In this document: positions 15,127 through 52,660 of the stretch, piece by piece
How the letters are laid out: every line of letters begins with the position of its first letter
How positions within the stretch are numbered: position 1 is the stretch's first letter
Assembly: GCA_035292885.1 (NCBI GenBank)
Contig: DATDPG010000019.1
Coordinates: forward strand, 59,570 to 123,569
From: Bdellovibrionota bacterium
Lineage (GTDB): Bacteria; Bdellovibrionota_G; JALEGL01; DATDPG01
DNA: 64,000 nucleotides
Direction: 5' to 3'
Notes under the pieces: generated by a model
The model's database searches: none
What the model was told of the DNA's origin: nothing
The model's input: the letters and a program-made list of their open reading frames with translations, nothing else
Position numbers and translations under genes: made by a program

Positions 15127-15203
15127 ATGGATATTTTAGTGTTCGTCTCCCGAAGAATAAGAACCATGATATGCATCATGCCGGGATAATTCCCGTCAAG
15201 GGC

Positions 15204-16301: not shown

Positions 16302-16406
16302 GAACCAAACGGCATCCGGTCAAAATAGTTTCCGTACGAGAACTGATACAAATCATGGTTCACAAGGAGGCGTTCTGTTCTCCTAATTCTAGTAACCGGA
16401 ATTCAT

Positions 16407-16910: not shown

Positions 16911-16939
16911 GGCGGAGCGGACAGGAGACCTGAAACGAC

Positions 16940-20131: not shown

Positions 20132-20132
20132 C

Positions 20133-21485: not shown

Positions 21486-21715
21486 CGAAAAAGAAAATTC
21501 TTTTTTTCAGCCAGCTCGTCTCTCTGGCGGGGATCTGGGTCTTCGTCTTGGGAATCAGCGTCTGGATTCTCCATCTCATCCGGATGGCCAACAAGCTTCA
21601 TGACGCTCCGACGGCGTCCGTATCGATCAGCCTGGTGGCCATTCCCGTCTTTCTCACAGGCGCGAGCGTGCTGACATATGTCTTCGTCGGCATACAGAGA
21701 GGTGGAAAGGAATAA
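21482..21715 (+). CDS. Small two-TM membrane protein (ActD-position subunit)
   Basis: ATGA overlap with the NrfD-like stop. MTKKKILFFSQLVSLAGIWVFVLGISVWIL...ISLVAIPVFLTGASVLTYVFVGI. Confidence 0.55.
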   Translation: MTKKKILFFSQLVSLAGIWVFVLGISVWILHLIRMANKLHDAPTASVSISLVAIPVFLTGASVLTYVFVGIQRGGKE

Positions 21716-21719
21716 TGCG

Positions 21720-22931
21720 ATGAACGGGCGGATTCCGATGGCCGTGTTCACCGTCGTTTTGGGCGCATCCTTCATGCTCGGCGGCTTCGCTCGGAGTGAG
21801 GAGGAGAATTGGCTTCCATCGGAGCCGCTCAAGGGGCGAGTTGTCTTCGAGCAAAAGCACTGCCCGCAGTGCCATTCGATCGGAGGCGCGAAAGGCGGGG
21901 TCGGTCCCGATTTAGCCGAAGCGGGAACGTATTTTCACGGGAGCTTTCTCCAGCTCTCATCCATTTTATGGAACCACATTCCGGACATGCTGGTGGAATA
22001 CAAAACGCGAAATCTTTCTTGGCCGAGTTTCTCCGAGGACGAGGTCGGCTATCTGATTTCCTATCTGTACTATCTGCGATACTTGGGAAGCCCGGGCGAT
22101 GTCGCCAACGGCCAGCGCCTCCTCCAGACGAAAGGGTGCGTCGCCTGTCATGCCGTCGGGAAACAAAAAAAGGCGGGGGACGCGCCTCCGCTGGATCAGC
22201 TCAAGAAATATGTTTCGCCGCTCTACCTGGTGCAGGCGGTTTGGAATCACGGGCCCCGGATGCAGCGGATGATCGAACAAAAGGGAATCAAGCGGCCGAC
22301 ATTCGACGGTCAGGAAATCAGCGACATGAGCGCGTACATCCGCAACGTAAGCCGCTGGAACACCGAGGAGAAAGTGTATCTCTCCCCGGGCGATCCGAAG
22401 AACGGAGAACGGGTGTTTGAAAGCAAGGGGTGCGTCAAGTGTCACTCCGAACAAAGGGGGAGGAAGCGGGCGCCGTCGCTGGAGAAGTCGAGCCTGAATG
22501 AGAGCGCGGCGGGCATCGCGGCGCTGATGTGGAACCATGCGGATGTCATGATGAGTTCGATGAAAGAGGAGAAAATCAGCTGGCCGACGTTCGAAGGGCG
22601 CGAGATGCCCGATCTGGTCGCATACCTGTTCTTTCTGGATTTTCTGGAACCGCCGGGAAACGCCGCAAAGGGCAAGGAGCTATTCGGCCAGAAACAATGT
22701 TCCTACTGTCATTCGATCCACGGAGCCGGGGGTACCATCGGACCCGATCTCGCGGTCGTCGGTTCTCTTTCCTCCACCCGGTCGATCCTCCGGATGATGG
22801 TGAATCACGCGGAAAACATGTCGGAAGCCGTCCTGGGCGCCGGGAAAGCCTGGCCGGTTCTGGGCGGTGACGAGATGAATAACATCTTCGCGTACTTAAA
22901 AAGCGTCGAACGGAAAGAAAAAAAGAAATAG
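21720..22931 (+). CDS. Tetrahaem cytochrome c built from four tandem class-I-like domains
   Basis: Start MNGRIPMAVFTVVLGASFMLGG (RBS GGAAAGGA). CPQCH, CVACH, CVKCH, CSYCH, each about 100 aa apart and each followed by a (W/V)NHxxxM motif. Paralog at 37130..38365. Confidence 0.85.
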   Translation: MNGRIPMAVFTVVLGASFMLGGFARSEEENWLPSEPLKGRVVFEQKHCPQCHSIGGAKGGVGPDLAEAGTYFHGSFLQLSSILWNHIPDMLVEYKTRNLSWPSFSEDEVGYLISYLYYLRYLGSPGDVANGQRLLQTKGCVACHAVGKQKKAGDAPPLDQLKKYVSPLYLVQAVWNHGPRMQRMIEQKGIKRPTFDGQEISDMSAYIRNVSRWNTEEKVYLSPGDPKNGERVFESKGCVKCHSEQRGRKRAPSLEKSSLNESAAGIAALMWNHADVMMSSMKEEKISWPTFEGREMPDLVAYLFFLDFLEPPGNAAKGKELFGQKQCSYCHSIHGAGGTIGPDLAVVGSLSSTRSILRMMVNHAENMSEAVLGAGKAWPVLGGDEMNNIFAYLKSVERKEKKK

Positions 22932-37129: not shown

Positions 37130-38365
37130 CTACGGTAAGTGCTTCGCATTCGGACTCGCCGGAGCCAGGCTCGTCAGAAACGCATAGAGATCCGCCATCT
37201 CCCGGCCCGTCAGTTTGGGCCACTTCAAGTGTTGCTCGGTATGCTTCTCTTGCATCTCGGTGGAGTGGTTCCACATCGCCGCGACCATGCCCATGGGGGA
37301 GTTCAATTTGCTGATGGCGGCGAAATCTTTCGCCGCGTTTCGTCCCTTGCCGTTTAAGGAGTGGCACGTCAGGCATTCTCGGTCCCTAACGAGATTCTCC
37401 CCTGTGGCGGGGCTCCCCGGTGCGTCCTCCAGTTTCATGCTGTAGAGATACGCGATGACGTGCGCCATCTCCCCCTCCTTGAAATCCGGGAACGTGAGTT
37501 TCTTTTCTTTCATCATCTCCCACATGGCGGGGCCGTGATTCCACATCTTGGCCGCGATCTCGGTCACGGGATAGTTGAAATCGACCTCAGCGAAATCGGG
37601 CGCCGTGGTTGGTGGTTTGGCACGGAACGAATGGCAATGCATGCACCCTTTTTCGGTCAAGAGTTCCTTCCCCTTTGAGGGATCGCCGAGGTCATAGTCG
37701 CTGGCCGGGAAGACGGTCGGGGCCATATACGAACGGATTCCGGCGGCCAGGGCGTCCATCTCGTCCTCTTCGATGACGGGCCGATCGATCTTGTACTTCT
37801 CAAAAAGCGCCAGCATTTTCGGGCCATGGTTCCACATCGCTTCCGCCAGTCGGATGGGGGAGATGTATTCCTTTTTCGCGCTGATGTCGGGAGCGATTCG
37901 GGCGCCTTCCCCTCCAAATTGATGACAAGAGAAGCATCCCTTTTCCTTCAGCACCTTTCTTCCCATCGATTCCCTCACCGGTTCCGCCATGTACCGGATG
38001 AAAGAGAGATAGCGAACCAGCTCGGACATCTCCTTCGGCGTGAACTTCGGAAAGGCATACCCTTTGGTCTCGATCTTCTTCGCCATTCTCGGAAGGTGAT
38101 TCCACATGACGGAAGAAAGCTCGAGGTATGTACCGTAAAACTTGCGGTTGCCCAGGTCGGGACCGCCGCGGCCCCCCCTCCCGTACACGGAATGGCACTG
38201 CGCGCATCCCTTCTGATGGAAGACTTCCCGACCCGGCCACGGTGAGGCCGAAGTGGCTGCTTCCTGCGCCCGAAGGGCGAAAATGGAGCCGGATGACATC
38301 AGGAGATACGCGAGAATGAATTGCAGGAGGCGGATGCAGTTTCTCCGGGTAGTGGACATAGTCAC
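37130..38365 (-). CDS. Tetrahaem cytochrome c built from four tandem class-I-like domains (paralog of 21720..22931)
   Basis: Signal LLQFILAYLLMSSGSIFALRA. CAQCH, CFSCH, CMHCH, CLTCH, each followed by MWNHxxxM. Confidence 0.85.
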   Translation of the reverse strand: MTMSTTRRNCIRLLQFILAYLLMSSGSIFALRAQEAATSASPWPGREVFHQKGCAQCHSVYGRGGRGGPDLGNRKFYGTYLELSSVMWNHLPRMAKKIETKGYAFPKFTPKEMSELVRYLSFIRYMAEPVRESMGRKVLKEKGCFSCHQFGGEGARIAPDISAKKEYISPIRLAEAMWNHGPKMLALFEKYKIDRPVIEEDEMDALAAGIRSYMAPTVFPASDYDLGDPSKGKELLTEKGCMHCHSFRAKPPTTAPDFAEVDFNYPVTEIAAKMWNHGPAMWEMMKEKKLTFPDFKEGEMAHVIAYLYSMKLEDAPGSPATGENLVRDRECLTCHSLNGKGRNAAKDFAAISKLNSPMGMVAAMWNHSTEMQEKHTEQHLKWPKLTGREMADLYAFLTSLAPASPNAKHLP

Positions 38366-38828: not shown

Positions 38829-39257
38829 TCATTCTTTGAAGGGATTGAGGATTCGCAAGTCCTCTACGTGAAAACCATGCTGCAGGTCTTCGGTATAGAG
38901 CGCGTCACAATTCGAGGCCAGTGCCTGAGCCACAATGGCCGCATCCCAGAAAGACCAGCGATAACGATGCCGAAGGCGACACGCGTGGACGAAGATTTCC
39001 TGAGTTGTCACGACCGGGTCCCATGAAAAGTAACTACGACAGACATCGACGGCATCCTCGAAGGAAAGAGGTTTCGGGATCTTGGTCGCGACCGTGACGA
39101 GAAATTCCTGCAACACCTGCAGGCTCGTCGCAGCCGATTGGTTTTCCCAATGGGCCTTTACGAGATCCGAAGATCGATTTGATTTACCGGAATCACTTCG
39201 ATCATACGCATAGACGAGAATATTCGTGTCAAAGAAAGCGCGCCTATTTTCGGACAT
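38829..39257 (-). CDS. vapC: PIN-domain toxin VapC
   Basis: RAFFDTNILVYAYD (N-terminal acidic PIN motif), plus a later FWDAAIVAQA and ...YTEDL. Overlaps the upstream antitoxin gene by 14 nt. Confidence 0.85.
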   Translation of the reverse strand: MSENRRAFFDTNILVYAYDRSDSGKSNRSSDLVKAHWENQSAATSLQVLQEFLVTVATKIPKPLSFEDAVDVCRSYFSWDPVVTTQEIFVHACRLRHRYRWSFWDAAIVAQALASNCDALYTEDLQHGFHVEDLRILNPFKE

Positions 39258-39489
39258 GCAGGGCGTCCCTCGACCAGGTCACCTTTCCCACTTCATACAG
39301 GCCCTTCGCCATTCTTCGCATTTCCTTGCGAAACGCACGTTGATGAAGCGATTTCCGCGAAATGAGTTCGTGGGCGTATTTGGCAAGAAGCCTGGAGACA
39401 GACTGGTTGGCTTCGGCCGCGGCGATTCGGAGCTTTCGCAACAACGGGCGGGGGAGGGTCAACGTGATGTTTTCGAGATCTCTCTTCAT
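39244..39489 (-). CDS. vapB: Ribbon-helix-helix antitoxin VapB
   Basis: Start at MKRDLENITLTLPRPLLRKLRIAAAEANQSVSRLL (RHH beta-strand + helix pattern). Confidence 0.7.
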   Translation of the reverse strand: MKRDLENITLTLPRPLLRKLRIAAAEANQSVSRLLAKYAHELISRKSLHQRAFRKEMRRMAKGLYEVGKVTWSRDALHVRK

Positions 39490-39551
39490 TACACTATTAT
39501 CGTGTAACACGATTATCGTGTCAATGCCTCGACCGGGTGGTGCCAAGACAG

Positions 39552-40793
39552 TTACTTGCGCGGCGGAGGAAGCGAACGGATTTTGAGAGCCAGAGCGATG
39601 ACCAACAACGTGAGGAATATTGTGCTGATTCCGAGGCCGACTCGGCGGGTTTTGTTTTCGCGGAGAGCGGCTTTCCCCAAAGCGATGGCTTGATCCACAG
39701 CTTTTCGTCCCTCCGTGATCTTCGCCTCCACCCCCGGCATGGAAAAGGAGTGAATCTCGGTTCGTGCCTGAATCAACGCCTGCCGGGCATTTTGCATGCT
39801 GTCCTCGGCTTCGGTGACGTCCATTCCCTTGTCCCTCGCTTCTTCGATAATCTTCGAAGCTTCGGCCGAATAATTCTTCAAAGAGCCGATCATCTTGGAG
39901 AACGCCATGGCCACGGCGGCGCCTTTATCCCCCTCTTTGTGGCACTTGGCGCAGATCGCGCCTTGCTGCGTCCCGATCCGGTCATCTGAGATGTGAACGA
40001 TCAGATGATTGCCGTGGCAGGAAATGCATTCGCCGTAGGGATCCTTCTGCAGGGCTTTCGCCATGGGACTCTTGAGAAACAGCTCGGCGTTGTGGACGTG
40101 GCAGGAGCCGCAAATATGGGCGATGGATTTCAGTCCCGGCGGTGTGGCGCCGTGGTTGCCGTGACAATCGTTGCAGGCGGGAGCGCCCCGGACATCTCCT
40201 TTTTCAAGCAGAGCTTTCCCATGCACACTTTTCGCGTACTCGGCATAGACGGTCGTCGAGATCTTGTACGGCTTCATATATTCGGGGTCGGCGTGGCAAT
40301 GGGCGCACATCGTCGGCAGGTTCACCGCGTAAACCGGAGACTTCGCGTCGTTGACTTTCCGGATGTTGTGCACGCTGTGGCAGCTGACGCATTCGGCGAC
40401 TTTGGTGTCCCCCTGTTTCAGTTTCTTGCCGTGCTGGCTGGTCAGGTAGAGCTCATACTGATCGACCCGAAGCATCGGGTTGTATTTCTTCATGAAGACC
40501 GGGTTGCTGTGGCATTTCGCGCAAAGTTTCGGAATGTCCGCCCTCTTCGGCGCCCCTTTGAAGCCTTTCTTCGGGTCCATTGAGATATCTTGGTCGTCCG
40601 AGGTCGGATCTCCGCCGTGGCATTCGTTGCACCCGATTCCCGCCGTGGCGTGCACGTCATCCTTCCAGCGGGTGGAGGGCTCATCTTCCATCGACTGATG
40701 GCAGATAAGGCATTGGCCGCCGGGCAGCGCAGCAGCTTCTTCGGCGTATGCCGACGAAAGTACGTTCAGCAGAATGAATAAAATCCAACTCAT
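39552..40793 (-). CDS. Nonahaem cytochrome c with C-terminal TM anchor (partner of the Rieske/cyt b complex)
   Basis: Start MSWILFILLNVLSSAYA in an ATGA overlap with the cyt b stop. CLICH, CNECH, CAKCH, CVSCH, CAHCH, CNDCH, CGSCH, CISCH, CAKCH. C-terminal GLGISTIFLTLLVIALAL. Confidence 0.85.
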   Translation of the reverse strand: MSWILFILLNVLSSAYAEEAAALPGGQCLICHQSMEDEPSTRWKDDVHATAGIGCNECHGGDPTSDDQDISMDPKKGFKGAPKRADIPKLCAKCHSNPVFMKKYNPMLRVDQYELYLTSQHGKKLKQGDTKVAECVSCHSVHNIRKVNDAKSPVYAVNLPTMCAHCHADPEYMKPYKISTTVYAEYAKSVHGKALLEKGDVRGAPACNDCHGNHGATPPGLKSIAHICGSCHVHNAELFLKSPMAKALQKDPYGECISCHGNHLIVHISDDRIGTQQGAICAKCHKEGDKGAAVAMAFSKMIGSLKNYSAEASKIIEEARDKGMDVTEAEDSMQNARQALIQARTEIHSFSMPGVEAKITEGRKAVDQAIALGKAALRENKTRRVGLGISTIFLTLLVIALALKIRSLPPPRK

Positions 40794-41881
40794 GCGAGTA
40801 CGTGTCCGGCGATGGTCATTCCTATAAAAAAAAGCAATAGCGCCATCCCGATGCCGCGGAGAATCTTTGTGGTCGATTTCTTTTTTCCGCAGTCGATCCA
40901 TGGAATAAGCAGCCAAAACACGCCGATCCCGCCGAAGATCATGTGTCCGACCAGCTCCCCGTCAATCGGCCCCACCTTGGCGGGCAAGAACTTGAGCGTC
41001 TGGAACATGAAAAGGAAATACCACTCCGGTTTGATTCCGGCCGGGGCGGAGGCGAAAGGATCGGCTTTCCTTCCCAGTTCCCAGGGGAAGAAGACCGCCA
41101 GGATCGCCAAAATATCGAGAATGATAAACCAAAGTAAAACGTCCCGGAGAAAGAAGTGCGGGAAAAACGGGATACTCTTCCGGTTTTCCGGGTGGCGTTT
41201 CCAATCTTCGGGCTCGTGCATTCCCTGGATCTGCACGAACAGCAAATGAATACCCAGAACGGAAGTGAAGATCGCCGGGAGGAGGGCGACATGCAAAGCG
41301 AAGAAGCGGGTCAGCGTAGAGCCGGTGACTTCTTCTCCGCCGCGGAGAACATGCATGAGGGTTTTCCCGATGTACGGCACGACGCCGATCATGTCGGTGC
41401 CGACCTTGGTGGCGAAGAAGGAAAGTTCGTTCCACGGCAGCAGGTAACCCGAAAACCCGAACGTCATGACGATTCCCAGAAGGGCGAGCCCCGTGACCCA
41501 GCTGAGTTCGCGGGGTTTCCTGTAAGCTCCCATGAAAAAGACGCTGAACATGTGGATGATGACGGCCAGGACCATCAAATTGGCCGACCAGCTGTGGATC
41601 GACCGGATCAGCCAGCCGAAAGGCACTTTCGATGTGATAAATTGAACGCTCTCGAAGGCCGCGTCGGCGCTCGCCTTGTAATAGAACATCAGGAGAATGC
41701 CGGTGGAGAGTTGGACGATGAAGAGAAAGAGGGAAACTCCGCCGAAGTAATACCAGATCGCGGTCTTTCCCATCGGCACTTCTTTGTGCCGCCCCCACTC
41801 AATCAGCTGTGCGATGGGATATCGGTCGGACAGCCATTCGATCGCGAGAGCGGCCCTACGCTTTAAGTGAGATGTAAACAT
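40790..41881 (-). CDS. Cytochrome b (fused b6 + subunit-IV-like) of a bc-type complex
   Basis: YYFGGVSLFLFIVQLSTGILLMFYY, RSIHSWSANLMVLAVIIHMF, GYLLPWNELSFFATKV and the PEWYFLFMFQTLK (PEWY) motif. Confidence 0.9.
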   Translation of the reverse strand: MFTSHLKRRAALAIEWLSDRYPIAQLIEWGRHKEVPMGKTAIWYYFGGVSLFLFIVQLSTGILLMFYYKASADAAFESVQFITSKVPFGWLIRSIHSWSANLMVLAVIIHMFSVFFMGAYRKPRELSWVTGLALLGIVMTFGFSGYLLPWNELSFFATKVGTDMIGVVPYIGKTLMHVLRGGEEVTGSTLTRFFALHVALLPAIFTSVLGIHLLFVQIQGMHEPEDWKRHPENRKSIPFFPHFFLRDVLLWFIILDILAILAVFFPWELGRKADPFASAPAGIKPEWYFLFMFQTLKFLPAKVGPIDGELVGHMIFGGIGVFWLLIPWIDCGKKKSTTKILRGIGMALLLFFIGMTIAGHVLA

Positions 41882-42308
41882 CTTCTCCCTGAACGTGGAC
41901 TTCGTACGTGTCGAGCGGGTGAGGCGGCGGGCCGGCCACATTGTTTCCGTTCAAATCGTATTGACCGTTGTGACAAGCGCACCAAATGCGCTCCATGTCG
42001 GGCCGGTACTGGACGATGCAGTCGAGGTGCGTGCATTTTCCCGTGAACGCGGCGAAACTGCCGTCCTTCTTGCGGACCAGCAGCGCCGGTTTGTTTCCGA
42101 ACTTGCAGATTTTCCCGCTGTTCGGGGGAATCTCGGAGACCGCAGCGACTTTCGCCGAAGAGACTTTGGCTTCGGTCTCCGCGACAGGAGTGAGGTAGCG
42201 AACGATCGGATAAAAGACGGACCCCACCCAGGCGAAACCGCTGGCCCCTAAAAGGGTGTTCAAGAATCCGCGTCGGGAGGTTTCGGTCGAGCTTCGAATC
42301 GGTTTCAT
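41856..42308 (-). CDS. Rieske [2Fe-2S] protein, Tat signal
   Basis: SRRGFLNTLLGASG. CTHLDC...CACHNGQY Rieske boxes. Confidence 0.9.
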   Translation of the reverse strand: MKPIRSSTETSRRGFLNTLLGASGFAWVGSVFYPIVRYLTPVAETEAKVSSAKVAAVSEIPPNSGKICKFGNKPALLVRKKDGSFAAFTGKCTHLDCIVQYRPDMERIWCACHNGQYDLNGNNVAGPPPHPLDTYEVHVQGEDVYISLKA

Positions 42309-42448: not shown

Positions 42449-42604
42449 TTACGACGAACGGTTGATTTTTAACCACCGGTCTCGGAGCGCGGGGTTATTT
42501 CTCCAGACCTCAAAGATCATCCTTCGGTATCCTTCGAGCCAAAGAATAATCTGTTCAGGCGTGAGTTTGGGTGTTCGTCCCCAGTCATGAGTTGTTTTAG
42601 GCAC
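42449..42604 (-). CDS. Possible 51-aa small ORF downstream of the NTase-fold gene (below track cutoff)
   Basis: GTG start overlapping the NTase stop. Hand translation gives MPKTTHDWGRTPKLTPEQIILWLEGYRRMIFEVWRNNPALRDRWLKINRSS. It resembles the small protein at 23509..23691. Confidence 0.25.
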   Translation of the reverse strand: MPKTTHDWGRTPKLTPEQIILWLEGYRRMIFEVWRNNPALRDRWLKINRSS

Positions 42605-43094
42605 TTTCTTGCCCTGTAAGTTTTCTCAATTCCGCTGCGTCGAAAAGGTCCTTGTCTCTGCCGGCTCTGTCCTTCATTTCAATCAGGTCCATTTTGCCGA
42701 TCACTCTAATTTTAATTCCAAAGGCATCGACCAACAATTGCCTGCCCGCAAGTTCCTGAAATGGCTTGGGTTCTTGTGAAAAGACATCGATGACTTCAAA
42801 TGGATTTCCCGGGTGAATGAAAGAGAAAACCATCATTCCCTTTTCCTCTATCCATTCTTTGCGTTTATGCGCATCGGCGAAATCTTTTGCATCAACCGGC
42901 AGGCGGGGCTTGAAACCAAGATGCGAGACCATTTCTACAAATGCCAGGACATTTTTGCGCTCAAGGTGCACGATGAGATCAAGATCCACGGTCGCTCGTT
43001 GGACCTGATGAAAATTCACGGCGAATCCGCCTGCGACGAGATACTCGATTTTTCTTCGGTCAAGCTCAATGAAAAGTTCTTTGTACGGAACCAT
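42597..43094 (-). CDS. Nucleotidyltransferase-fold protein (paralog of 22946..23512)
   Basis: LVAGGFAVNFHQVQRATVDLDLIV and VIGKMDLIEMKDRAGRDKDLFDAAEL. AT-richer than its flanks. Confidence 0.55.
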   Translation of the reverse strand: MVPYKELFIELDRRKIEYLVAGGFAVNFHQVQRATVDLDLIVHLERKNVLAFVEMVSHLGFKPRLPVDAKDFADAHKRKEWIEEKGMMVFSFIHPGNPFEVIDVFSQEPKPFQELAGRQLLVDAFGIKIRVIGKMDLIEMKDRAGRDKDLFDAAELRKLTGQESA

Positions 43095-43236: not shown

Positions 43237-45168
43237 TTAAGGGTTGGGGCGATCGAGTTCGCGCGGATGATCCCGTTCCATTTCATGGCGGGTCACTTTG
43301 CCCGTGAGCCACGTTACGTTCATCGGATATTCATCCGGATGGAATATCACGAAGAAGAGGTGCCACACGAGAATGGCCAGCGTCGCCAGCCACGCCTCAA
43401 AATAGTGAATCAACTCCGCCAGCGGGATGCCCCAAACGGGAAGGAATCTTGAAAACAGTTCTGGAAACCAGAGCGCAAAGCCCGTGACCGACATCACGAT
43501 CGTTCCCCAAATGAGCGCCCAATATTCCGCCTTGTGAATGTACGTGTACCGGCCGAGCTTCGGTGCCGTGGCTGCGCGCGCCCGGACGAGTTTAACGTAA
43601 TAAAAGATGTTGGCCGATAAATCCCGGACATCCGTGAGACGCGGAAGAAGCTCCCGAATCTCCTTTCGGCCCTGACGTGTGAAGATCGAATGGAAAATGT
43701 GAAGGACTCCCGCGCTTAACATGATCACCGCGCTGGTACGATGGATGACGCCGCGAGCGTGTTCACCCAAATGAACCCAATCCAAAATCACCGTCCAGCC
43801 GGCGCGAGAAAAATGAAGCGCGAAGCCGGTGATGACAAGCGTCGTAAAGCTCACCAGGAGCAGGCCGTGAGCCACGAGCTGAATCGTTGTGAATCGGGTG
43901 TAGACGACTTCTTCCCGGTGTGAGCGGATCTTTTTCACGACGGCCGCTGCATAAATGAGCAAGTTATGAAGAAGCATCAGGCCGATCGTGCTGACAATCA
44001 TCCAGAGATAGAGAATGCGAACCCAGTAGAGAATGGGGCTGGCTGTCGGAGAGGTGTCCAAGTGCACGGGAACGCGGCTGAACGCCTGCGTTGCATCGGG
44101 GTGGCACTTGCCGCAGGTCTTGGCCAGGTTGTCCGGATGAATCGAGGAGCGGGTATCGGAAGAGGGGAGAATCCGGTGCGTTTCATGGCAGCTGGAACAG
44201 TTTGCGACGGTGACCGAGCCGCGCCGGACGGCCATGCCATGATAACTCTGCATGTACGTTGAAAGCCGTTGAATTGAAAATCCGTATCGCTGGGCCAGAG
44301 TAAGATCGGAATGACAGTGGCCGCACGTCTTCGTTGTCAGCTGTGCAGGCGACACAGGCGATTCAGGCGATTTCGTGTCGACGATGGCGTGTTCGCCGTG
44401 GCAGTCCGTGCAGGCGGGGGCGTCCGTAATCCCGCGAGCGACGGCCTGTCCGTGCACGGAGACCTTATAATCTTCTAAGATATCGCTGTGGCATCTTCCA
44501 CATGTTGCGGGAATTTGTTTCTTCGAAACCGCGGACATCATTTCACGTCCCGGCTGGATCGTGTGATAGCCGTGACAGTCGGTACAGACGGCGGCTTTCA
44601 GATTACCAGCCGCAATGGCACGACCGTGGACGCTGTTTTTATACGCGCCGACAGGGTCGGACACGGGGATGTCGTATTTCTTGGCGAGTTTGATGTCGGC
44701 GTGACACTTGGCGCACAAAGCGGGGACGTTGGCTTTGCTGTGTCTCGCGGTTTCGCTGGTGAACGGCTGAATCAAATGCGCGTCGCCGTGGCAATCGACA
44801 CAAGAAGGCGCATCTGAAATCCCATTGTTCTTTGCAGTGCCGTGCGTGCTGCCGCGGTACTCCTTTTCGGCATCTTCATGACAGCTTCCGCAATTTACTT
44901 TTTGTGGAGCTTCCTCATGCTCGCCGAAGGGCCCGCCGGCGTGGCAGTCGGTGCAGGCTAGTTCGCCGTGGACGGAAGCCTTGAAAACTTTGGGATCCAC
45001 GACGTCATGGCAATCAACACACTTTTTCGGATCGATTCGGTTCGCGGCAAAAACCGACGAAATCGCAAACATTGCGCAGCCGACGAATGCCAAGCCCGAT
45101 TTTGTAAAGGGAACCCCGGTCGGTTTCAAAAATTGGACACTCATCCGATGAAAACGCCCGCCAAGCAT
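43237..45168 (-). CDS. CbcL-like inner-membrane fusion: 11-haem cytochrome c domain + HydC/FdnI-type cytochrome b domain
   Basis: Eleven CXXCH motifs: CVDCH, CTDCH, CGSCH, CVDCH, CAKCH, CTDCH, CGRCH, CTDCH, CGHCH, CSSCH, CGKCH. These are followed by a 4-TM b-type domain (YTRFTTIQLVAHGLLLVSFTTLVITGFAL...IHKAEYWALIWGTIVMSVTGFALWFP) with conserved His. The start may be the internal MSVQF at 45144. Confidence 0.8.
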   Translation of the reverse strand: MLGGRFHRMSVQFLKPTGVPFTKSGLAFVGCAMFAISSVFAANRIDPKKCVDCHDVVDPKVFKASVHGELACTDCHAGGPFGEHEEAPQKVNCGSCHEDAEKEYRGSTHGTAKNNGISDAPSCVDCHGDAHLIQPFTSETARHSKANVPALCAKCHADIKLAKKYDIPVSDPVGAYKNSVHGRAIAAGNLKAAVCTDCHGYHTIQPGREMMSAVSKKQIPATCGRCHSDILEDYKVSVHGQAVARGITDAPACTDCHGEHAIVDTKSPESPVSPAQLTTKTCGHCHSDLTLAQRYGFSIQRLSTYMQSYHGMAVRRGSVTVANCSSCHETHRILPSSDTRSSIHPDNLAKTCGKCHPDATQAFSRVPVHLDTSPTASPILYWVRILYLWMIVSTIGLMLLHNLLIYAAAVVKKIRSHREEVVYTRFTTIQLVAHGLLLVSFTTLVITGFALHFSRAGWTVILDWVHLGEHARGVIHRTSAVIMLSAGVLHIFHSIFTRQGRKEIRELLPRLTDVRDLSANIFYYVKLVRARAATAPKLGRYTYIHKAEYWALIWGTIVMSVTGFALWFPELFSRFLPVWGIPLAELIHYFEAWLATLAILVWHLFFVIFHPDEYPMNVTWLTGKVTRHEMERDHPRELDRPNP

Positions 45169-45213
45169 ATCTCAGCTTGGCGGGCGCCGAAACATGAACT
45201 CATTCTGAGCCTG

Positions 45214-45588
45214 TTATTTCGCCTTTGACTGCAGGTCTCGCGTGTATTCCGTCAACGCCGTAATGTCGGCGTCCGACAGTCCTTCCAACTTCTTCATCTT
45301 CCCTTTGCCCTCTTTCATCGACTTCTTAATGTCGTCGTCGGTGATTTTCTTGGCTTCGGGGGAAAGGATGCTGAGCCCTTCCGGCTTTTCGAGCTTCAGG
45401 GTTTTAGCTACCGGCATCCAGGAGCCGTCCGCCTTCTTTCCGCCGCCGTCTTCCGCGTGGCATTTCTTGCAATGCTTGTCGTACAGCGCCTTTTTCGCGG
45501 CGTCATCCGCCGCGAATGCGGACGCGGCAAACATCAAAGCGGGCACAACCAGGATTCCGATCAGTCCAATCAACGTCTTCTTCAACAT
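45214..45588 (-). CDS. Small periplasmic monohaem cytochrome c (paralog of 12625..12975)
   Basis: Start MLKKTLIGLIGILVVPALMFAASAFA behind RBS GGAGGA. Single CKKCH. Confidence 0.85.
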   Translation of the reverse strand: MLKKTLIGLIGILVVPALMFAASAFAADDAAKKALYDKHCKKCHAEDGGGKKADGSWMPVAKTLKLEKPEGLSILSPEAKKITDDDIKKSMKEGKGKMKKLEGLSDADITALTEYTRDLQSKAK

Positions 45589-45650
45589 AGGCTTCCTCCA
45601 GTGTTTCTTTTTAGATGATGCCAAATTTACGAACATGATTCGGATCAATG

Positions 45651-45685
45651 AAATGAAAAGAGGGCCGGCCCGTATGGGCCGGCCC
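45651..45685 (-). terminator. Rho-independent-type hairpin inside the cytochrome gene string
   Basis: Perfect 10-bp GC stem gggccggccc / gggccggccc with a 4-nt loop (45662..45685). On the minus strand it is followed by TCTTTTCATTT. Confidence 0.6.
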
Positions 45686-45719
45686 CGTCAATCGCTCTGG
45701 ACGGTTCAAACTCTCGCGC

Positions 45720-48700
45720 TTAACGCAACGTCGCGTTCGGAACCGCCACGCCGGTGATTACCTTATACGTCCCTTGGAGGACGCCGACCTCGTATCCGGC
45801 GTTATGGACGCCCATGCTGCCGTCTCGAACCACCAGATTGTGGTTCCAGATCGCCCGGCGGATCTTGTCGGATCGGGCCCACTTGAAGGCCCCGCCGGCG
45901 GGATAGACGCTAACGCCGGGGTTGCAGTCCGCGGCGTTCGTGCAGGCCGTAGTAAGGTCGTTGTCGCACTTGCCGGCAATGTACGCCCCGCACGTGCTGA
46001 GGCACTTGTCGTGCGTCGGCGTCGGATCCAAAGGATCGACCGTACCACACGAGATGGTCGTATCTTCTTTGCACCGGTTCTTGCTCGAACCCGAGGTATT
46101 GCACGGACGCGCATCCGCGCCTGCACCGTTGAAGTTCGAGTAACCCAGAGCGTCCGGAACGATGCAGTCGTTGTCCGTGGAACACTCGATCTCATCCGTA
46201 CTCCCGGCGGTGGACCTCGGTTTTGCGATGGTGCACTTGTTGGTCGCAGTGACACAGGGGCCGAAGTACATCGTCCCCGTCGTCGCAATTTTGCAGTCCT
46301 CGTCCTTGGAGCAACTATAGGCCGAACGTTGATCACACTTTCCGGCTGTGATCGTCCCGCACGGTCCGTAGTTCGTCGCTGATACGGTCGTCACATTCAC
46401 CTTCTTCAGGTTGCATCCGGCATCCGAAGTGCAGAATTGAGCGTCGGCCACAATCGTAGTACTTGCTGCCGAGCAAGTCTTGACCGCGTCGCAACTCGTG
46501 TCACCAGCCGCCGTGCAACTGATGTAGGGCGCCAGCGTACACTTCTTGTTTGCGTTGCAGTCACCCGCGTCCAGTGTAGTGACACTGCACGTTCCCAGGT
46601 TCACGTCGTCGTACGCTTTGATGGCGTCCGACAAGAGGAGCGCAAGCCCCGTGACTTCGTCCTGGATCCCCTCGATCGTCCCATCGCCGTCGTAATCGCC
46701 GCGAGCCTCACGGTTAATCTCCGTGAGATCCGTGTGACATGGCGTGCACGCGCTGATGTTCGCGAGCTCACCCGCTTCACCGGCTACGGTCTCCTCTTCC
46801 TCGGCACCGACTAGATGGCCGACGCCGTGACCGCTCATAATGTTGAAAGAGTGACCGCCCAAGTGGCGGAACCCATCCTCCGTCGCATCCGGCCCCTCGG
46901 CCATGTGGCACGTGAGGCACTTCCGGTTCTCCGTCGGCAATGTCGGGTCACCCGAAACATCCGCCAGAATAAATCCCGGCTCGGAATGGAACGAATTCCC
47001 CGTTGTGAAGACATCGTCGATTCCGTTTTTGTCGAGGTCGAGAAGAGCCCCCTTTCCTTCGAGAACGGGAGCCTGCGGATTGTAGTGGACCTGTCGCGTG
47101 TAATAGTCCGCGTTTTGCTCCAACGTCTCGCAGAGCGTATCTGAAACGCCGTCGCGATTCGTGTCGCACGAAAACTCTCCGAAACTGTAGAGGCCGTCGT
47201 GGCACTTGTAACAAACGGCCGCCTTCCCGGCATCCACTGTCGATTCGTCGATGATCATCTCGAGCTCTCCGTGCATTCGAAGCTGGTCCTCGTTTGTCGC
47301 GTCGTGCGGGTCATGACACCCAGCGCACCCGATACCGACGAAAGCCTCCTGTTCCGTGATCGGCGTGAGGGCTTCCTCGCCCCCCTCCACATAATTGATG
47401 AAGCCCTTGGAGGTATGGCAGCGTGTACAGGCTGCGTTCGTGAGCCATGAAACCTGATAGCTGGCGGAGCCGTGCGAGACGCCGGTCATGTTGTGCGAGG
47501 AGTTGATCCATTCGGCCTCTTGCGTATGACACTGGCCGCAGATACCGGTCTGAGAAGCGGAGACACCGATCTTCGTGGCGTCGCCGTTGTGTCCCGAACC
47601 CGGGCCATGGCAATTCTCACACTGAACACCGCTTAGAGCGGCCACGGAAGGCGCATCCGCCAAGAAATCGGCGTATGTGCCCGGCTGGGTGGAAACGTCA
47701 AAGCCGGTCGAGGCCACGGCCTCGTCAAATCCGCCGTTTGCGGCGGACGTATTGTAACCGACCGTTTCAAAGCCCCACAGATAGGGCTCGGGTGCCAGCG
47801 ATGACATGGCCAGATACGAATTTTCGTAGAGCTTTGAGTGATTTGTTCCCTGCCACTCGCCGACTTTGTCCGGCATCGCCGAACCGTCATGGCATCCGGC
47901 GCACTCGGGCCTCGCCGCGTCGCCGGTGATACTTCCGATGCCTACATACGTCCCGGCATACATCCGGAACGAACCCACGATCGTGCAATGATCCACGCCG
48001 CCGTCCGAGGTGTATTTACAATTGGGCGCGACACGGCCGCACGCCCGTACACCATCCGCATCGGGTCCCACAGCCGATTCATCGACCGTCGCCGTGTAGG
48101 CCACCGTGTAATACCCCTCGACATCCGGCGTGAACTTGGGGAGCTGAAGCGCTGAGGCTACGGTTCCGGAATCGGCAAAAACGGCTGCAGATCCATCCGG
48201 GGGTGTCAGCGTCCAAGACCAGTCATCGTTGATGGGCTTGGCGCGCCTCGTGGTCGGCGTGCTCGTCGAAGGCAACGAACCGTTACACGCTGTCGAAGTG
48301 GATGTGTACTCCAATATGACCGAACTGTTCGGTCCCTGCAGGTAGAGGGGAACATTCAGCGGAACGGTCCAAAGACCGCTCGACCGCTGAATCTCGGCAC
48401 CGGCGTCCTGAACATAGACCACCTGTGTCGTGCTGTCGCTGTTCCCGGCACCGTCGTCCACCGTCAACCTGAAATAGAGTTTCGTATCTTCGATCGAAAC
48501 AGGGAGCGGTTGCCACTTGTACTCATCACTTTGTCCGCCGTGCGCGGCGTTCTCCTCAGCTTCCCTCAAACCGACGGTCAGAAAATCCTTAAGCGCGGGA
48601 GCGGTGAACGGAAGAGTTGAGGACGTGCTCCCGGCCGTCGCGGTCGCGAAGGGGCCGGAGACCTGCTGCCAGCTGTAGTTCACGACACTTCCGCGGCTGT

Positions 48701-49163
48701 TTTCGCCGGAGAGAATTCCACCCGCGTCTTCCAAATCGATGGCCAGTTCATCCGTTCCGAATCGTGTGCGTGTGGTGATGGTGGAACCGGAACCGTTCGT
48801 GATGACCGCAAGAATCGTCTTGGCCGTGACGCTGACCGTGTCGGTGCTTTCGGCATCGTGGAGAGAGAGTTTCAACACGTACGTGCCGGCCGCGTCCGCG
48901 ACAAAGCTGGTCGCGATTTCGGAACCGCCCGTCAGAGCGGCGGAAGAACCGTCGGGTTTCGATTCAAGCGTCCATATAATATTGCCGACGACCGTGCTTC
49001 CGGAACCGTCCAAATTCACGGTGTCGCCGATCAGGACCTTCTGGTCCTCGCCTGCGTTAGCGGCGGCGGTCCCTTCCGGATCGTCGTCGCATGCCGAAAC
49101 ACTGATCGCCACGGCGGCAGCCGCGAGAAGATTGATCATCCAAAGTCCCTTCGTGCTTTTCAT
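45720..49163 (-). CDS. Giant surface lipoprotein octahaem cytochrome c with PKD-like domains and Cys-rich C-terminal repeats
   Basis: Start MKSTKGLWMINLLAAAAVAISVSAC (lipobox; RBS GAGGGAGAG). Motifs CAGCH, CENCHGPGSGH, CGQCH, CTRCH, CAGCHDPH, CYKCH, CLTCH, CTPCH. PKD-like DTVNLDGSGS...AGTYVLKLSLHD. C-terminal 4-Cys modules. Confidence 0.85.
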   Translation of the reverse strand: MKSTKGLWMINLLAAAAVAISVSACDDDPEGTAAANAGEDQKVLIGDTVNLDGSGSTVVGNIIWTLESKPDGSSAALTGGSEIATSFVADAAGTYVLKLSLHDAESTDTVSVTAKTILAVITNGSGSTITTRTRFGTDELAIDLEDAGGILSGENSRGSVVNYSWQQVSGPFATATAGSTSSTLPFTAPALKDFLTVGLREAEENAAHGGQSDEYKWQPLPVSIEDTKLYFRLTVDDGAGNSDSTTQVVYVQDAGAEIQRSSGLWTVPLNVPLYLQGPNSSVILEYTSTSTACNGSLPSTSTPTTRRAKPINDDWSWTLTPPDGSAAVFADSGTVASALQLPKFTPDVEGYYTVAYTATVDESAVGPDADGVRACGRVAPNCKYTSDGGVDHCTIVGSFRMYAGTYVGIGSITGDAARPECAGCHDGSAMPDKVGEWQGTNHSKLYENSYLAMSSLAPEPYLWGFETVGYNTSAANGGFDEAVASTGFDVSTQPGTYADFLADAPSVAALSGVQCENCHGPGSGHNGDATKIGVSASQTGICGQCHTQEAEWINSSHNMTGVSHGSASYQVSWLTNAACTRCHTSKGFINYVEGGEEALTPITEQEAFVGIGCAGCHDPHDATNEDQLRMHGELEMIIDESTVDAGKAAVCYKCHDGLYSFGEFSCDTNRDGVSDTLCETLEQNADYYTRQVHYNPQAPVLEGKGALLDLDKNGIDDVFTTGNSFHSEPGFILADVSGDPTLPTENRKCLTCHMAEGPDATEDGFRHLGGHSFNIMSGHGVGHLVGAEEEETVAGEAGELANISACTPCHTDLTEINREARGDYDGDGTIEGIQDEVTGLALLLSDAIKAYDDVNLGTCSVTTLDAGDCNANKKCTLAPYISCTAAGDTSCDAVKTCSAASTTIVADAQFCTSDAGCNLKKVNVTTVSATNYGPCGTITAGKCDQRSAYSCSKDEDCKIATTGTMYFGPCVTATNKCTIAKPRSTAGSTDEIECSTDNDCIVPDALGYSNFNGAGADARPCNTSGSSKNRCKEDTTISCGTVDPLDPTPTHDKCLSTCGAYIAGKCDNDLTTACTNAADCNPGVSVYPAGGAFKWARSDKIRRAIWNHNLVVRDGSMGVHNAGYEVGVLQGTYKVITGVAVPNATLR

Positions 49164-49189
49164 GTTTTCTCTCCCTCTCATGAAAGTTC

Positions 49190-49984
49190 TTACTGCGTAT
49201 GACATATGATGCAAGCCTGTCCATTGTCCGGATGCCGAAGCGGCGTATGGCAGCCCCGGCAATCCGCGTTAGGTAGATGGTTGACGTTGCTCGGTCGCCT
49301 CGGCGTGGCCATGTGAGCCGAGCTCGTTTGGTGGCACACCACGCACCTCTGTGCCCCATACGATTCCAGCGGGTAATGACAGTTCAGGCAGTGCCGATTT
49401 TGGGACGCCCCGAACCCGGCCATGTGATCGATCGGCTTCGTTTCCATATGGCACCGCTGGCAGAAGTCGGTCCGGTGGCACGTCATGCACTGCGATCGGT
49501 CGAAGCCCACCTGGAGCGCATGGCCGCGGAGGCGGAAGAATTGGTTGTGATTCGCCGGCGGCGTGATCTGGTGGCATTCCGAGCAGCTGGACTGCGTGTG
49601 GCAGAGGTTGCAGCTGTTCTTCGTGTCGAACCTAAACCGCTGCACCAGCGCGCCGTGCTCATGCTTGAACGTCAAATCGTGCCAGGCCGGTTTCGTGTCT
49701 TTGGTCATCCCGCCTTCGTGACATTCCGAACAGTCGCTGTCTCGCGCAACATCCGGGTGCTCCCACGTTGTGCCTTCGTCGCACCCTTTGTTGCCGAGAA
49801 AAAATGGGACCGCGAGCATTATTGTTAAAACAGACAACGATCGTCTGATGGGGTGCCAAGAAAATACGTTCGGGCTCCGGTCCCGACGGTACCCCCCAAG
49901 TCCATGCTCGAGACTGCGCGTGGACTTGGGTGTCCCCGTCGGGCCACCCGAACGTATTTTCTTGGCACCCTTCAAAAGTTCCAA
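49190..49984 (-). CDS. Nonahaem cytochrome c (periplasmic/barrel-inserted component)
   Basis: CSECH, CNLCH, CSECH, CMTCH, CQRCH, CLNCH, CVVCH, CRGCH, CIICH, with paired CxxCH-x4-CxxCH units as in 13308..13910. Hydrophobic segment LSVLTIMLAVPFFLGNKGC. The exact start is uncertain. Confidence 0.85.
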   Translation of the reverse strand: MELLKGAKKIRSGGPTGTPKSTRSLEHGLGGYRRDRSPNVFSWHPIRRSLSVLTIMLAVPFFLGNKGCDEGTTWEHPDVARDSDCSECHEGGMTKDTKPAWHDLTFKHEHGALVQRFRFDTKNSCNLCHTQSSCSECHQITPPANHNQFFRLRGHALQVGFDRSQCMTCHRTDFCQRCHMETKPIDHMAGFGASQNRHCLNCHYPLESYGAQRCVVCHQTSSAHMATPRRPSNVNHLPNADCRGCHTPLRHPDNGQACIICHTQ

Positions 49985-51312
49985 GCGACCCTCACATCCA
50001 ACGTATGGAAATTGTCCAGGTCACTGGTTTCAAATTCGTACCCGAGCCGCCCCTCAAAGTCTTTGAGAAACTTCACGGTTCCCCGCGCATAGTACGTTTG
50101 GACGTTGTCCGATTCGTTCCCGGCTAAAAGGTTATATCGATAGAGGTAGAAAGCTGTTCCGGCCGTCAGCCGCAGCTTCCGCTTCAACAGGTCTTGGGCG
50201 ATGGAGAAAGATGTCCCGTACGTATCGTTCTGAAGTTCGTTGTCCTGTCCCAAATAGTAATCGCCGGTTAACGAAAGGCTCATGCCGTCGAGCGGCCATT
50301 CGATCGTTGACCCCGTCAAAAAGAACCGCTGAAAACCGTGATTGAACGCACTGGCGACCTGCTCTTCAATCAAAATACGGAATGCATACCCCGCATCCAG
50401 GGCAAAATGCTCGCCGATCCCCTTCATCCCGGTGAAGGCCATTTCGTAATACGGTTTGTATTCCCCGGCGAACGAATACGGATCCAGATCGATCACGCGG
50501 ACACCGTACGACTCGAGGAGACTGAAGAAGTGAAACTGGAGAGAAAGGTTCTGTTCGATGAATCGGTACCGGGTGTCGAGGGCCAAGTCCCGGACTTGAT
50601 CCAAGAACGATGTAAACCTCGAGGAAATCATGAGCCCCGGCTGGGCGTCCCACCAAACGCTCAGGCCGAAGAGATCATCTTCGATGTCACCGACGTTCGC
50701 CCGGAAGCCGGTGAAGTCATCCTTCAAATGAACGTAATCGAAACGGGCCCGAACCACCTTGACCGGATCGATCTCAAACGCTCCGCCGGCGACAAAATCG
50801 CCGCTGTCGGAACCGGTTTCCGTTTCGTAGAAATGGACCGGAACGCCGCCGTACGACATCAGCTTGAACCCTTTGGCTTCCCGCCACTGAAGGGAGAGGC
50901 CGTCGAAGTACAGCGACTCGAATTCCTGCCGGAACTGCCGTCCCGCGCGAAGCCGATCGAATACGCCGAGGTTGTTGGCGTCGAGGTAGGCGTGGTAGAT
51001 CCGCCCCGCGGCGCCGGTGTTGAAGGAGTCGTACACGCCATTGAACGTGGAATCCGAACTGTCGCCGTCCAGGTCGAAAATCCCGCCGGCCTGCAGGGAA
51101 ACCGCCACGCGGTCGTTCAAAGGCTCGCCCATGTTGAGCGAAAGAAGCGTTTCAAGATCCTGATCGCTGGTATCGGCGGTGGCGCGCAGTTTGTAACGGG
51201 TGCTGATGGAACCGAAAATATTGGAGTCTTCCGCGATCGCCGCATCGCAATAGACATACGCCCCAAAAAGGAGAAGCGTACATCCCAACCGACGGCGGCG
51301 AGAGGCGAGCAT
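49972..51312 (-). CDS. Outer-membrane beta-barrel (porin component of a porin-cytochrome module)
   Basis: Signal MLASRRRRLGCTLLLFGAYVYCDAAIA, amphipathic strands, and C-terminal ...LDVRVAWNF. Paralogous by eye to 13897..15126. Confidence 0.65.
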   Translation of the reverse strand: MLASRRRRLGCTLLLFGAYVYCDAAIAEDSNIFGSISTRYKLRATADTSDQDLETLLSLNMGEPLNDRVAVSLQAGGIFDLDGDSSDSTFNGVYDSFNTGAAGRIYHAYLDANNLGVFDRLRAGRQFRQEFESLYFDGLSLQWREAKGFKLMSYGGVPVHFYETETGSDSGDFVAGGAFEIDPVKVVRARFDYVHLKDDFTGFRANVGDIEDDLFGLSVWWDAQPGLMISSRFTSFLDQVRDLALDTRYRFIEQNLSLQFHFFSLLESYGVRVIDLDPYSFAGEYKPYYEMAFTGMKGIGEHFALDAGYAFRILIEEQVASAFNHGFQRFFLTGSTIEWPLDGMSLSLTGDYYLGQDNELQNDTYGTSFSIAQDLLKRKLRLTAGTAFYLYRYNLLAGNESDNVQTYYARGTVKFLKDFEGRLGYEFETSDLDNFHTLDVRVAWNF

Positions 51313-51718: not shown

Positions 51719-51947
51719 ATCAGGATTGGAACGCTTGGACCGCCGACCAAAGGGCGAACCCGAAAAAAAGCGCCGCGGCCACCCATCGGACCCACTTCAT
51801 TTTGATCTTTTCGGCCATTCGGTCGCCCAAATAGACGGCCAGACCGCCAGCTCCGACGACCGGGCGGAATTCGTGCGTAGGAACGTCAACTCGTCCGATT
51901 TTCTCAAATCCGTACTCATTTGAGAGGCGTCGAAGGCTCTCATTGTG
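51719..51947 (-). pseudogene. Possible remnant of a UPF0016/GDT1-like membrane protein C-terminus
   Basis: Open frame between an upstream TAG and a TGA reads ...FRPVVGAGGLAVYLGDRMAEKIKMKWVRWVAAALFFGFALWSAVQAFQS. No start codon lies upstream of the internal Met, and the ExGDKT motif is missing. Confidence 0.3.
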
Positions 51948-51973
51948 CTACTCTCCACTCGACGACGAATCCC

Positions 51974-52660
51974 ATGGGCCAGAACGAACGACGAATCCAC
52001 ACACGGCTTCAGCTGAGCGAGGAGGTCCGGGCCTCCACTCCCAAAGGCTTTCTGACAGGCTACCTCCGAGATGTCTCCAAAGGGGGCGCGGGAGTCGTCT
52101 TCGAAGAGAGCGTCGGGGATGTCGGGGAAACGATCGAGATTTTTCTCCCCTTCCCCGGCGGCGTGGAGATCGCCGTGATGGCGGAGATTGTCCGAATCCA
52201 AGAAACCCAGGGCGGTCTCTTGCACGGCCTCTGCTTCAGCCTCGTTGAACCTTCGATGCAGGAAAAACTTCTGACGCTCGTCGAGACCCTCCTCGCCGGA
52301 TCGGGGGGAAAGCGACGGGAGCACCCGCGCGTCTCCAAGAGAATTCCGATCCGCTACGGGAACCAGGCGGAGTTTCAAGCCGGCCTCCAAACGATCTCCA
52401 TGGGTGGGTTGTCGATGATGATCGACACTCCCGTGGTTCTCTTCCAAGAGGTCGAAGTCTCCATTCCGGACGTCAGCGGTCGCGAACTTCTCATCCTCCC
52501 CGCCCGGGTGATCTACCAGCACAACCTCGAGAAAAGTGGAAAGAAGCAGTATGAGGTCGGTCTTCAGTTCCGTGAACTGACGGGTCCGCAGAAGGCCTGC
52601 CTCGCCGAACTCCTCCGCTACGTGATGGATACACCGGCCGACGCCACAGGTTCCAAGTGA
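51974..52660 (+). CDS. Tandem PilZ-domain protein (c-di-GMP receptor-type)
   Basis: Start MGQNERRIHTR. Two RxxxR...D/NxSxxG pairs: RRIHTR...DVSKGG and RREHPR...TISMGG. Confidence 0.8.
   Translation: MGQNERRIHTRLQLSEEVRASTPKGFLTGYLRDVSKGGAGVVFEESVGDVGETIEIFLPFPGGVEIAVMAEIVRIQETQGGLLHGLCFSLVEPSMQEKLLTLVETLLAGSGGKRREHPRVSKRIPIRYGNQAEFQAGLQTISMGGLSMMIDTPVVLFQEVEVSIPDVSGRELLILPARVIYQHNLEKSGKKQYEVGLQFRELTGPQKACLAELLRYVMDTPADATGSK

Follow-up and report, generated by a model that had tools for sequence, protein, structure and literature searches.

The window considered here is a stretch of 64,000 nucleotides (nt) from an uncultured Bdellovibrionota bacterium of soil or groundwater (assembly GCA_035292885.1, contig DATDPG010000019.1, positions 59,570 to 123,569). 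It contains a block of five genes that encode an outer-membrane β-barrel, two multihaem c-type cytochromes, a monohaem cytochrome and a multihaem inner-membrane cytochrome resembling CbcL (table 1). The first three genes are termed the triad and the last two the pair.

All five open reading frames (ORFs) lie on the minus strand, where a first-pass annotation of the same DNA had placed them. Its haem counts (0, 9, 8, 1 and 11 CXXCH motifs in gene order) were reproduced, as were its junctions: a 13-nt overlap of the barrel and nonahaem genes (49972 to 49984), a 26-nt gap before the octahaem ATG at 49163 that contains GAGGGAGAG, and a 131-nt spacer with a GC hairpin between the octahaem and monohaem genes. 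The starts of the triad genes are translationally coupled. The 1180 amino acids (aa) previously ascribed to the octahaem protein belong to the longest ORF, which begins at TTG 49262, whereas 45720..49163 itself encodes 1147 aa. The last gene had been started at ATG 45168, a codon covered by the second of two hairpins; a start at 45144 (NCBI, 635 aa) or 45129 (ENA, 630 aa) is therefore more likely. The first hairpin (read from 45686 to 45661) pairs over 11 bp, of which 10 are G-C, ahead of a run of T, and was the top terminator match between 36.5 and 52.5 kb; its centroid fold has a free energy of −28.7 kcal/mol (z = −2.5). For the second, the centroid fold reaches −35.7 kcal/mol (z = −3.7), and 0 of 200 shuffled sequences were equally stable.

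Table 1. Features of the gene block and of its cytochrome-rich neighbourhood, in window coordinates.
Feature	Position	Strand	Properties
Outer-membrane β-barrel	49972..51312	-	446 aa; signal peptide; ends ...VRVAWNF; ~22 strands, no plug domain (model)
Nonahaem c-type cytochrome, predicted wire threading the barrel	49190..49984	-	264 aa from TTG 49984; 9 CXXCH
Octahaem lipoprotein	45720..49163	-	1147 aa; ATG 49163; 8 CXXCH; lipobox VSAC
Intrinsic-terminator-like hairpin directly 3′ of the octahaem gene	45661..45686	-	GGGGCCGGCCC-ATAC-GGGCCGGCCCT then CTTTTCATTT
Monohaem class I cytochrome c	45214..45588	-	124 aa; Sec signal peptide (AFA/AD); CKKCH
Second hairpin, between the monohaem and CbcL-like genes	45155..45190	-	13-bp stem then UUUUC
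CbcL/MtrH/MtoC-type inner-membrane cytochrome	43237..45144	-	signal peptide, 11-haem c domain, linker transmembrane helix, FdnI/HydC-type b domain
Rieske protein	41856..42308	-	context; Pfam/NCBIfam assignment
Cytochrome b6-like protein	40790..41941	-	context; 215.7 bits on ExtP NF040969 (cut-off 290)
Membrane-anchored 9-haem cytochrome	39552..40916	-	context
Tetrahaem class I cytochrome	37130..38365	-	context

The outer-membrane triad

The barrel protein matches no Pfam or NCBIfam model, and a profile of its family found no match among PDB sequences up to E = 10. An AlphaFold2 (AF2) model built from a 48-sequence alignment (predicted local distance difference test (pLDDT) 86, predicted template modelling score 0.79) comprises ~22 strands with short loops and lacks a plug. 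The standard barrel formula, rather than the model coordinates, gives an expected C-alpha diameter of ~38-44 Å for 22 strands, and an unplugged barrel of such size would need an occupant. The best structural matches of the model are barrels that contain a plug or a pilus subunit. Some 420 mature residues had seemed atypical at first; this length is normal for porins of porin-cytochrome c (Pcc) clusters (PMC4282303, PMC4245776). The protein contains no CXXCH motif, so it is not a Cyc2-type fused monohaem cytochrome-porin.

The barrel belongs to a family of 1044 clusters at 50% identity, as collected by a full-library profile search (E ≤ 1e-3). The only name carried by sampled members is 'hypothetical protein', and no Kuenenia or Geobacter member surfaced among the sampled cluster names. 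The family extends to Planctomycetota, including anammox bacteria, while the close relatives come from groundwater and aquifer metagenome-assembled genomes (MAGs) labelled Deltaproteobacteria, Pseudomonadota or Myxococcota. The barrel sequence itself recurs on several metagenome contigs.

The mature part of the predicted wire measures ~195 aa after a conserved Cys68, equivalent to ~22 residues per haem. In the family alignment (A3), nine invariant His residues outside the haem motifs accompany the nine CXXCH, and these could suffice as candidate second ligands for every haem. The gene 3′ of the barrel in related loci encodes a protein 40-54% identical to the wire; for the 13-haem partners of Planctomycetota, this identity applies to the C-terminal part. 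The conserved Cys follows a hydrophobic segment and sits in LxNKxC here and in a canonical LAGC lipobox in Planctomycetota; the wire may thus itself be lipid-anchored. The closest relative does not share its first 45 aa, which leaves the start codon uncertain. Pfam and NCBIfam searches gave nothing specific, and the search of the PDB gave no significant relative, with MtrA not among the matches.

The octahaem protein consists of roughly three to four tandem immunoglobulin (Ig)/PKD-like domains (residues ~30-400), a haem core (~410-850) and C-terminal helices (1099-1137), with AF2 placing helices at 833-851, 1099-1114 and 1122-1137. Pfam recognizes K319L-like PKD, Paired_CXXCH and Cytochrome_C554 domains. 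Its 15 close homologues with an intact N-terminus all have a signal peptide ending in a lipobox Cys, and in the close homologues the eight CXXCH motifs are invariant throughout, as are seven His residues outside them. The lipobox and the Ig/PKD array bear out the first-pass description of a lipoprotein with adhesin-like modules. In a Foldseek search the N-terminal β-sandwich array resembled cadherin/Ig arrays; matches were confined to this array because the haem core and a Cys-rich insert were modelled poorly. The insert (residues ~853-1096, 245 aa, 24 Cys) could not be modelled and, beyond this protein, occurs only in its relative P0073 (74% identical). Placed after the first and ahead of the second of the core's C-terminal helices, it carries a recurring G-K/D-C-D/N...C-S/T...D-C pattern.

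A profile of the octahaem family matched the PDB entries of OcwA (6i5b_A, 8e-18), OmhA (6qvm_A, 2e-16) and, at a distance, NrfA (6e-9), followed by octahaem nitrite reductases (ONR), MccA and cytochrome c554. This kinship emerged from profile search; single-sequence PDB searches with the large, 9-haem and CbcL-like proteins were only marginal. The match to OcwA and OmhA takes in the C-terminal helix with the DGSxGxHN motif that the three proteins share, so the protein has both the homologous haem core and the C-terminal helices of their clade. The NrfA-type homologous group (PMC9250108) covers the octahaem core, and its cell-surface members are the best matches. An 'NrfA/OTR-style' core, as the protein was first described, is therefore correct at the level of the superfamily, but OTR is an outlier of the group and OcwA and OmhA are closer.

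No solved structures are closer to the haem core than those of OcwA of Thermincola potens (6I5B) and OmhA of Carboxydothermus ferrireducens (6QVM), both of which transfer electrons at the cell surface (PMC6703420, PMC7829351). They contain nine and eleven haems, respectively, two of them penta-coordinate beneath His-His pockets (HH281/282 and HH380/381 in OcwA), in contrast to the eight haems of the present protein. In its family the first His-His segment is missing (CHTQ--EAEW), which deletes the HH281/282 pocket, and the second reads H693-Y694, a His-Tyr pair (PMC6703420, PMC9250108). Neither CXXCK nor any other catalytic-haem signature was found in the protein. Unlike OcwA and OmhA, it is a lipoprotein of a diderm, with ~400 aa of Ig/PKD domains, the Cys-rich insert and a gene located 3′ of a barrel and a wire. 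From the conserved lipobox, the Ig/PKD domains, the kinship to OcwA and OmhA and a type IX secretion system (T9SS) sorting domain on a distant haem-core relative (P0165), we infer that the lipoprotein is exposed at the cell surface.

The triad is conserved as a unit. A multihaem gene (8-17 CXXCH) lies directly 3′ of the barrel gene in 43 of the 43 related loci that could be evaluated, and in most of them a second large multihaem gene is next. Together with the 22 modelled strands and the absent plug, this adjacency substantiates the early proposal that the first three genes form a porin-cytochrome unit. In the close clade, a wire of 8-9 haems precedes a lipoprotein that has 7-8 haems and 639-1147 aa. 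The wire of Planctomycetota (among them Ca. Anammoxibacter, Ca. Subterrananammoxibius and a Brocadiaceae MAG) carries 13 haems in ~340 aa, and the next gene commonly encodes a true MtrC/MtrF-like decahaem cytochrome (PF22113, 140-148 bits). In these planctomycetal loci (L018-L057, of which L021, L023 and L057 are anammox), the barrel is 26-32% identical and the 13-haem wire is a lipoprotein; those with the decahaem protein are hybrids of Pcc-like and Mtr-like parts.

The cytochrome pair and known conduits

The monohaem protein is a predicted ordinary class I cytochrome and periplasmic shuttle, as judged from its Pfam Cytochrom_C match (42 bits), its PDB matches to c6-, c552- and c555-type cytochromes, and a CKKCH haem motif with a likely Met ligand in GKGKM. 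An MtoD-like identity was considered and rejected, since the MtoD structure (4xxl) matched only at E = 0.4.

The last protein of the block contains 11 CXXCH motifs in residues 50-356, scores 37.9 bits on PF01292 (cut-off 30.1) and aligns to FdnI (1kqf_C, E = 6e-5), including H-x14-H of the last helix. The transmembrane scan gave a signal peptide and, after the c domain, five helices (a linker helix and the four-helix FdnI core). The domain logic of CbcL seen at first pass is thereby confirmed, with five transmembrane helices in place of the four then counted. More than 7,900 homologues share this architecture. The top 120 are unnamed or called formate dehydrogenase gamma or cytochrome b/b6 domain proteins, the nearest being from uncultured bacteria.

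Proteins of the CbcL/MtrH/MtoC family have 3-23 haems and 416-1034 aa, occur in 15 phyla and are often encoded beside mtrAB or mtoAB (PMC6295460). The block's protein (630-643 aa) shares their N-terminal multihaem c domain fused to a HydC/FdnI-like di-haem b domain with 4-6 transmembrane helices; it is assigned to the family by architecture, the sequence-level definition being at least ~29% identity together with tree placement. CbcL of G. sulfurreducens has 9 haems and 6 predicted transmembrane helices, as against 11 haems here.

Among characterized conduits, the triad most resembles the Pcc cluster OmbB-OmaB-OmcB of Geobacter, with the same order of barrel, small multihaem cytochrome and large outer multihaem lipoprotein. 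OmbB is ~45 kDa with 20 predicted strands and OmaB is 27 kDa with 8 haems (PMC4282303), while Pcc porins in general are predicted to have 18-22 strands (PMC4245776). The triad likewise clusters a barrel gene with two multihaem genes, its barrel has a strand number in this range and is smaller than MtrB, and both systems combine a small cytochrome of ~25 kDa and 8-9 haems with a barrel of ~45 kDa and ~20-22 strands. They differ in the outer cytochrome, which has 12 haems in OmcB but 8 haems, an OcwA/OmhA-type core and PKD/Ig domains in the block; moreover, no orfR-type regulator was noted beside the block's barrel, the divergent upstream gene encoding a PilZ protein. Shi et al. (2014) defined Pcc clusters by BLAST E < 0.01 to OmbB, OmaB and OmcB, and included those of Anaeromyxobacter and Ca. 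Kuenenia. The periplasmic cytochrome of the Kuenenia cluster falls, like that of Anaeromyxobacter, in a group of 338-344 aa and 12-14 haems (PMC4245776), and the Planctomycetota/anammox branch of the present family (13 haems, ~340 aa) fits that cluster by size and haem count.

Shewanella MtrCAB and the MtoAB/PioAB systems follow the same logic of a cytochrome wire in a barrel with, on the outside, a surface lipoprotein cytochrome. The block has neither an MtrB/PioB-type large barrel, nor a decahaem wire of the MtrA/DmsE type, nor an MtrC/OmcA-type decahaem cytochrome. The extHIJKL-MNOPQS region of Geobacter also places a conduit near a cytochrome b6-like protein and c-type cytochromes. None of the five block proteins matched the NCBIfam models with Ext names; next to the block, the cytochrome b6-like protein falls below the ExtP cut-off (table 1), as does the tetrahaem cytochrome on ExtS (49 bits, cut-off 100).

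A proposed route for electrons and its alternatives

On balance, the block is probably a Pcc-type porin-cytochrome conduit beside an inner-membrane quinol:cytochrome c module. The slim 9-haem cytochrome would fill the plugless 22-strand barrel and exchange electrons, in either direction, with the octahaem lipoprotein on the outer face, while the Ig/PKD domains and the Cys-rich insert would hold that protein out from the cell. On the periplasmic side, the monohaem class I cytochrome and the 11-haem domain of the CbcL/MtoC-type protein would connect the wire to the quinone pool via the FdnI-type di-haem b domain. Gene content, haem and ligand counts, barrel size, homologies and co-conservation of the triad are observed; that the proteins assemble into a complex, that the triad is coupled to this inner-membrane module, and the direction of flow, we infer.

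Several observations weigh against this reading. Between the triad and the pair stands a strong terminator-like hairpin. In the closest relative (L058) the triad is followed by POR/ferredoxin genes with no monohaem/CbcL-like pair. On the P0195 contig no triad accompanies the pair; there the gene for a 137-aa class I cytochrome c with one haem, likened to the block's own at class level only, precedes a CbcL-like gene. The first-pass view of the five genes as one tight block was abandoned on these grounds. The residue after the lipid-modified Cys of the octahaem protein is Asp (CDDD) in this protein alone, the homologues having Gly or Ser, and in Escherichia coli an Asp at this position would retain a lipoprotein in the inner membrane. 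Only residues ~30-400 of the octahaem protein are well modelled by AF2 (pLDDT 58 overall), the haem core and Cys-rich insert being poor. The likeness to Pcc clusters is one of gene order and protein sizes and not of sequence comparison with OmbB, OmaB and OmcB. Finally, a His/Met class I cytochrome is atypical of the known chains that carry electrons outwards.

The first three of these points are also what would be expected if only the triad were a unit, the pair being an independent respiratory module in a cytochrome-rich region and other inner-membrane complexes feeding the conduit. Such an arrangement is rather unlikely in our estimation, though it is the best placed of the alternatives. 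It would further suit the hairpin after the monohaem gene, the presence of additional cytochrome blocks in the window and the use of NrfCD-type modules by relatives, in which a module of cytochrome c, 4-haem protein, iron-sulfur (FeS) protein and NrfD adjoins the triad in four loci, two of them near-identical (L007, L009/L014 and L017). Against it, the order of all five genes recurs in one close relative (L012), where a monohaem homologue precedes the CbcL-like gene and the junctions are 27-nt and overlapping ones; in six Planctomycetota loci a CbcL-like gene is found no more than 8 kb from the barrel; and some quinol-linked module stands beside the triad in most long loci. Rieske/cytochrome b genes occur near the barrel in seven Planctomycetota loci, and one locus (L008) has ccm genes beside the triad. 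Among the loci compared, the five-gene order is repeated only in L012. We read the block as two juxtaposed modules and the general pattern as a conduit beside some quinol-linked module; this pattern supports a functional link without proving the link to this particular CbcL-like protein.

For the proposed conduit, outward flow, to Fe(III), Mn(IV), humics or electrodes, is somewhat more likely than inward flow. The statement made at first pass that direction cannot be read from sequence is upheld, in that CbcL/MtrH/MtoC homologues occur in Fe(III) reducers and Fe(II) oxidisers alike (PMC6295460). If flow were inward, which we consider unlikely, electrons from Fe(II), minerals, a partner cell or a cathode would reach the monohaem cytochrome and pass to the CbcL/MtoC-type protein, by reverse flow to quinones, and/or to the Rieske/cytochrome b complex and high-potential c cytochromes, in parallel with mtoAB-mtoD-mtoC of Gallionella and Dechloromonas. 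The order of conduit, monohaem class I cytochrome and CbcL/MtoC-type gene indeed mirrors mtoA-mtoB-mtoD-mtoC (PMC6295460). A Rieske/cytochrome b complex and a tetrahaem class I cytochrome also lie just downstream, and the monohaem protein is c6/c552-like with its likely Met ligand. Such Met-ligated class I cytochromes usually have high potentials. On the other side, the solved structures closest to the outer cytochrome are those of terminal reductases from Gram-positive iron reducers, the match to MtoD is marginal, and no oxidase, carbon-fixation or other lithotrophy marker was noticed in the window, where no search was aimed at them. A fuller version of inward flow is more doubtful still: an Fe(II)- or electron-uptake system of an uncultured subsurface lineage, in which the octahaem protein, possibly with one open haem, would act as collector and deliver through the wire and a high-potential monohaem cytochrome, with the CbcL/MtoC-type protein passing electrons to quinones and with a share for Rieske/cytochrome b. 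If true, this would be a Pcc-type counterpart of MtoAB-MtoD-MtoC made wholly of non-Mtr parts.

It is very improbable that the triad is an outer-membrane-anchored surface reductase for soluble nitrite, hydroxylamine, sulfur oxyanions, selenite or tellurite, with the octahaem protein as catalyst and the barrel and wire merely feeding it: although the haem core falls in the NrfA/ONR/MccA/OcwA group, OcwA reduces nitrite and hydroxylamine in vitro (PMC6703420), one haem may be open because only seven invariant non-motif His serve eight haems and one of these, H693, corresponds to an OcwA pocket His that is not a ligand, and the neighbouring cytochrome b resembles, below cut-off, ExtP of a Geobacter selenite/tellurite operon, the protein has no catalytic-haem signature, its pockets are deleted or altered as described above, placing such an enzyme outside the outer membrane offers no obvious advantage, and in Planctomycetota the same barrel and wire accompany MtrC-like decahaems, which are electron-transfer proteins.

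Surroundings in the window and significance

Downstream of the block, an unannotated 165-aa ORF (42597..43094) lies between the CbcL-like gene and the Rieske/cytochrome b set of table 1. That set is interrupted by two small ORFs (38829..39546), which by eye may encode a PIN toxin and an antitoxin-like protein. On the other side, the PilZ-domain gene (51920..52660, plus strand) diverges from the barrel gene across an intergenic region of ~600 nt. Scanning the window for Rfam families and tRNA genes gave no matches.

A second cytochrome-rich block occupies 13012..22931. Its minus strand encodes a 409-aa signal-peptide protein that has no haem and weakly matches DUF2490 (13897..15126), a 7-haem protein (13308..13937) and a 2-haem protein (13012..13374); these may constitute a second, smaller porin-cytochrome trio. 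Kinship of the putative barrel of this trio with the barrel of the main block was rejected (hhalign probability 3%). The divergent plus strand encodes a 9-haem MtrC-domain protein, a 5-haem lipoprotein and a molybdopterin oxidoreductase with a twin-arginine translocation (TAT) signal (16940..19444), followed by an FeS subunit-like stretch, an NrfD protein (19851..21485) and a tetrahaem class I cytochrome. Adjoining this block is a gene for the ferrous iron transporter FeoB (10412..12463, minus strand).

We found no literature linking the source lineage to porin-cytochromes. The block reveals no new principle, and CbcL/MtoC-type genes beside outer-membrane conduits have been described before (PMC6295460, PMC4245776). 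The novelty lies in the parts themselves, namely an unannotated barrel-and-wire family and an OcwA/OmhA-like outer lipoprotein; the suggestion of an undescribed conduit variant in the first-pass annotation therefore stands for the components and falls for the overall design. A function can be offered for a sizeable family of unannotated barrels (~1,000 clusters at 50% identity), and a cytochrome of the OcwA type, so far characterized only on Gram-positive surfaces, is now placed in a diderm porin-cytochrome cluster. One barrel-and-wire core is joined to different surface cytochromes, OcwA/OmhA-like here and MtrC-like in Planctomycetota and anammox bacteria, and to varied inner-membrane modules of the CbcL-like, NrfCD and Rieske/cytochrome b types. 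Such modular exchange helps to predict extracellular electron transfer in uncultured bacteria of groundwater and soil.

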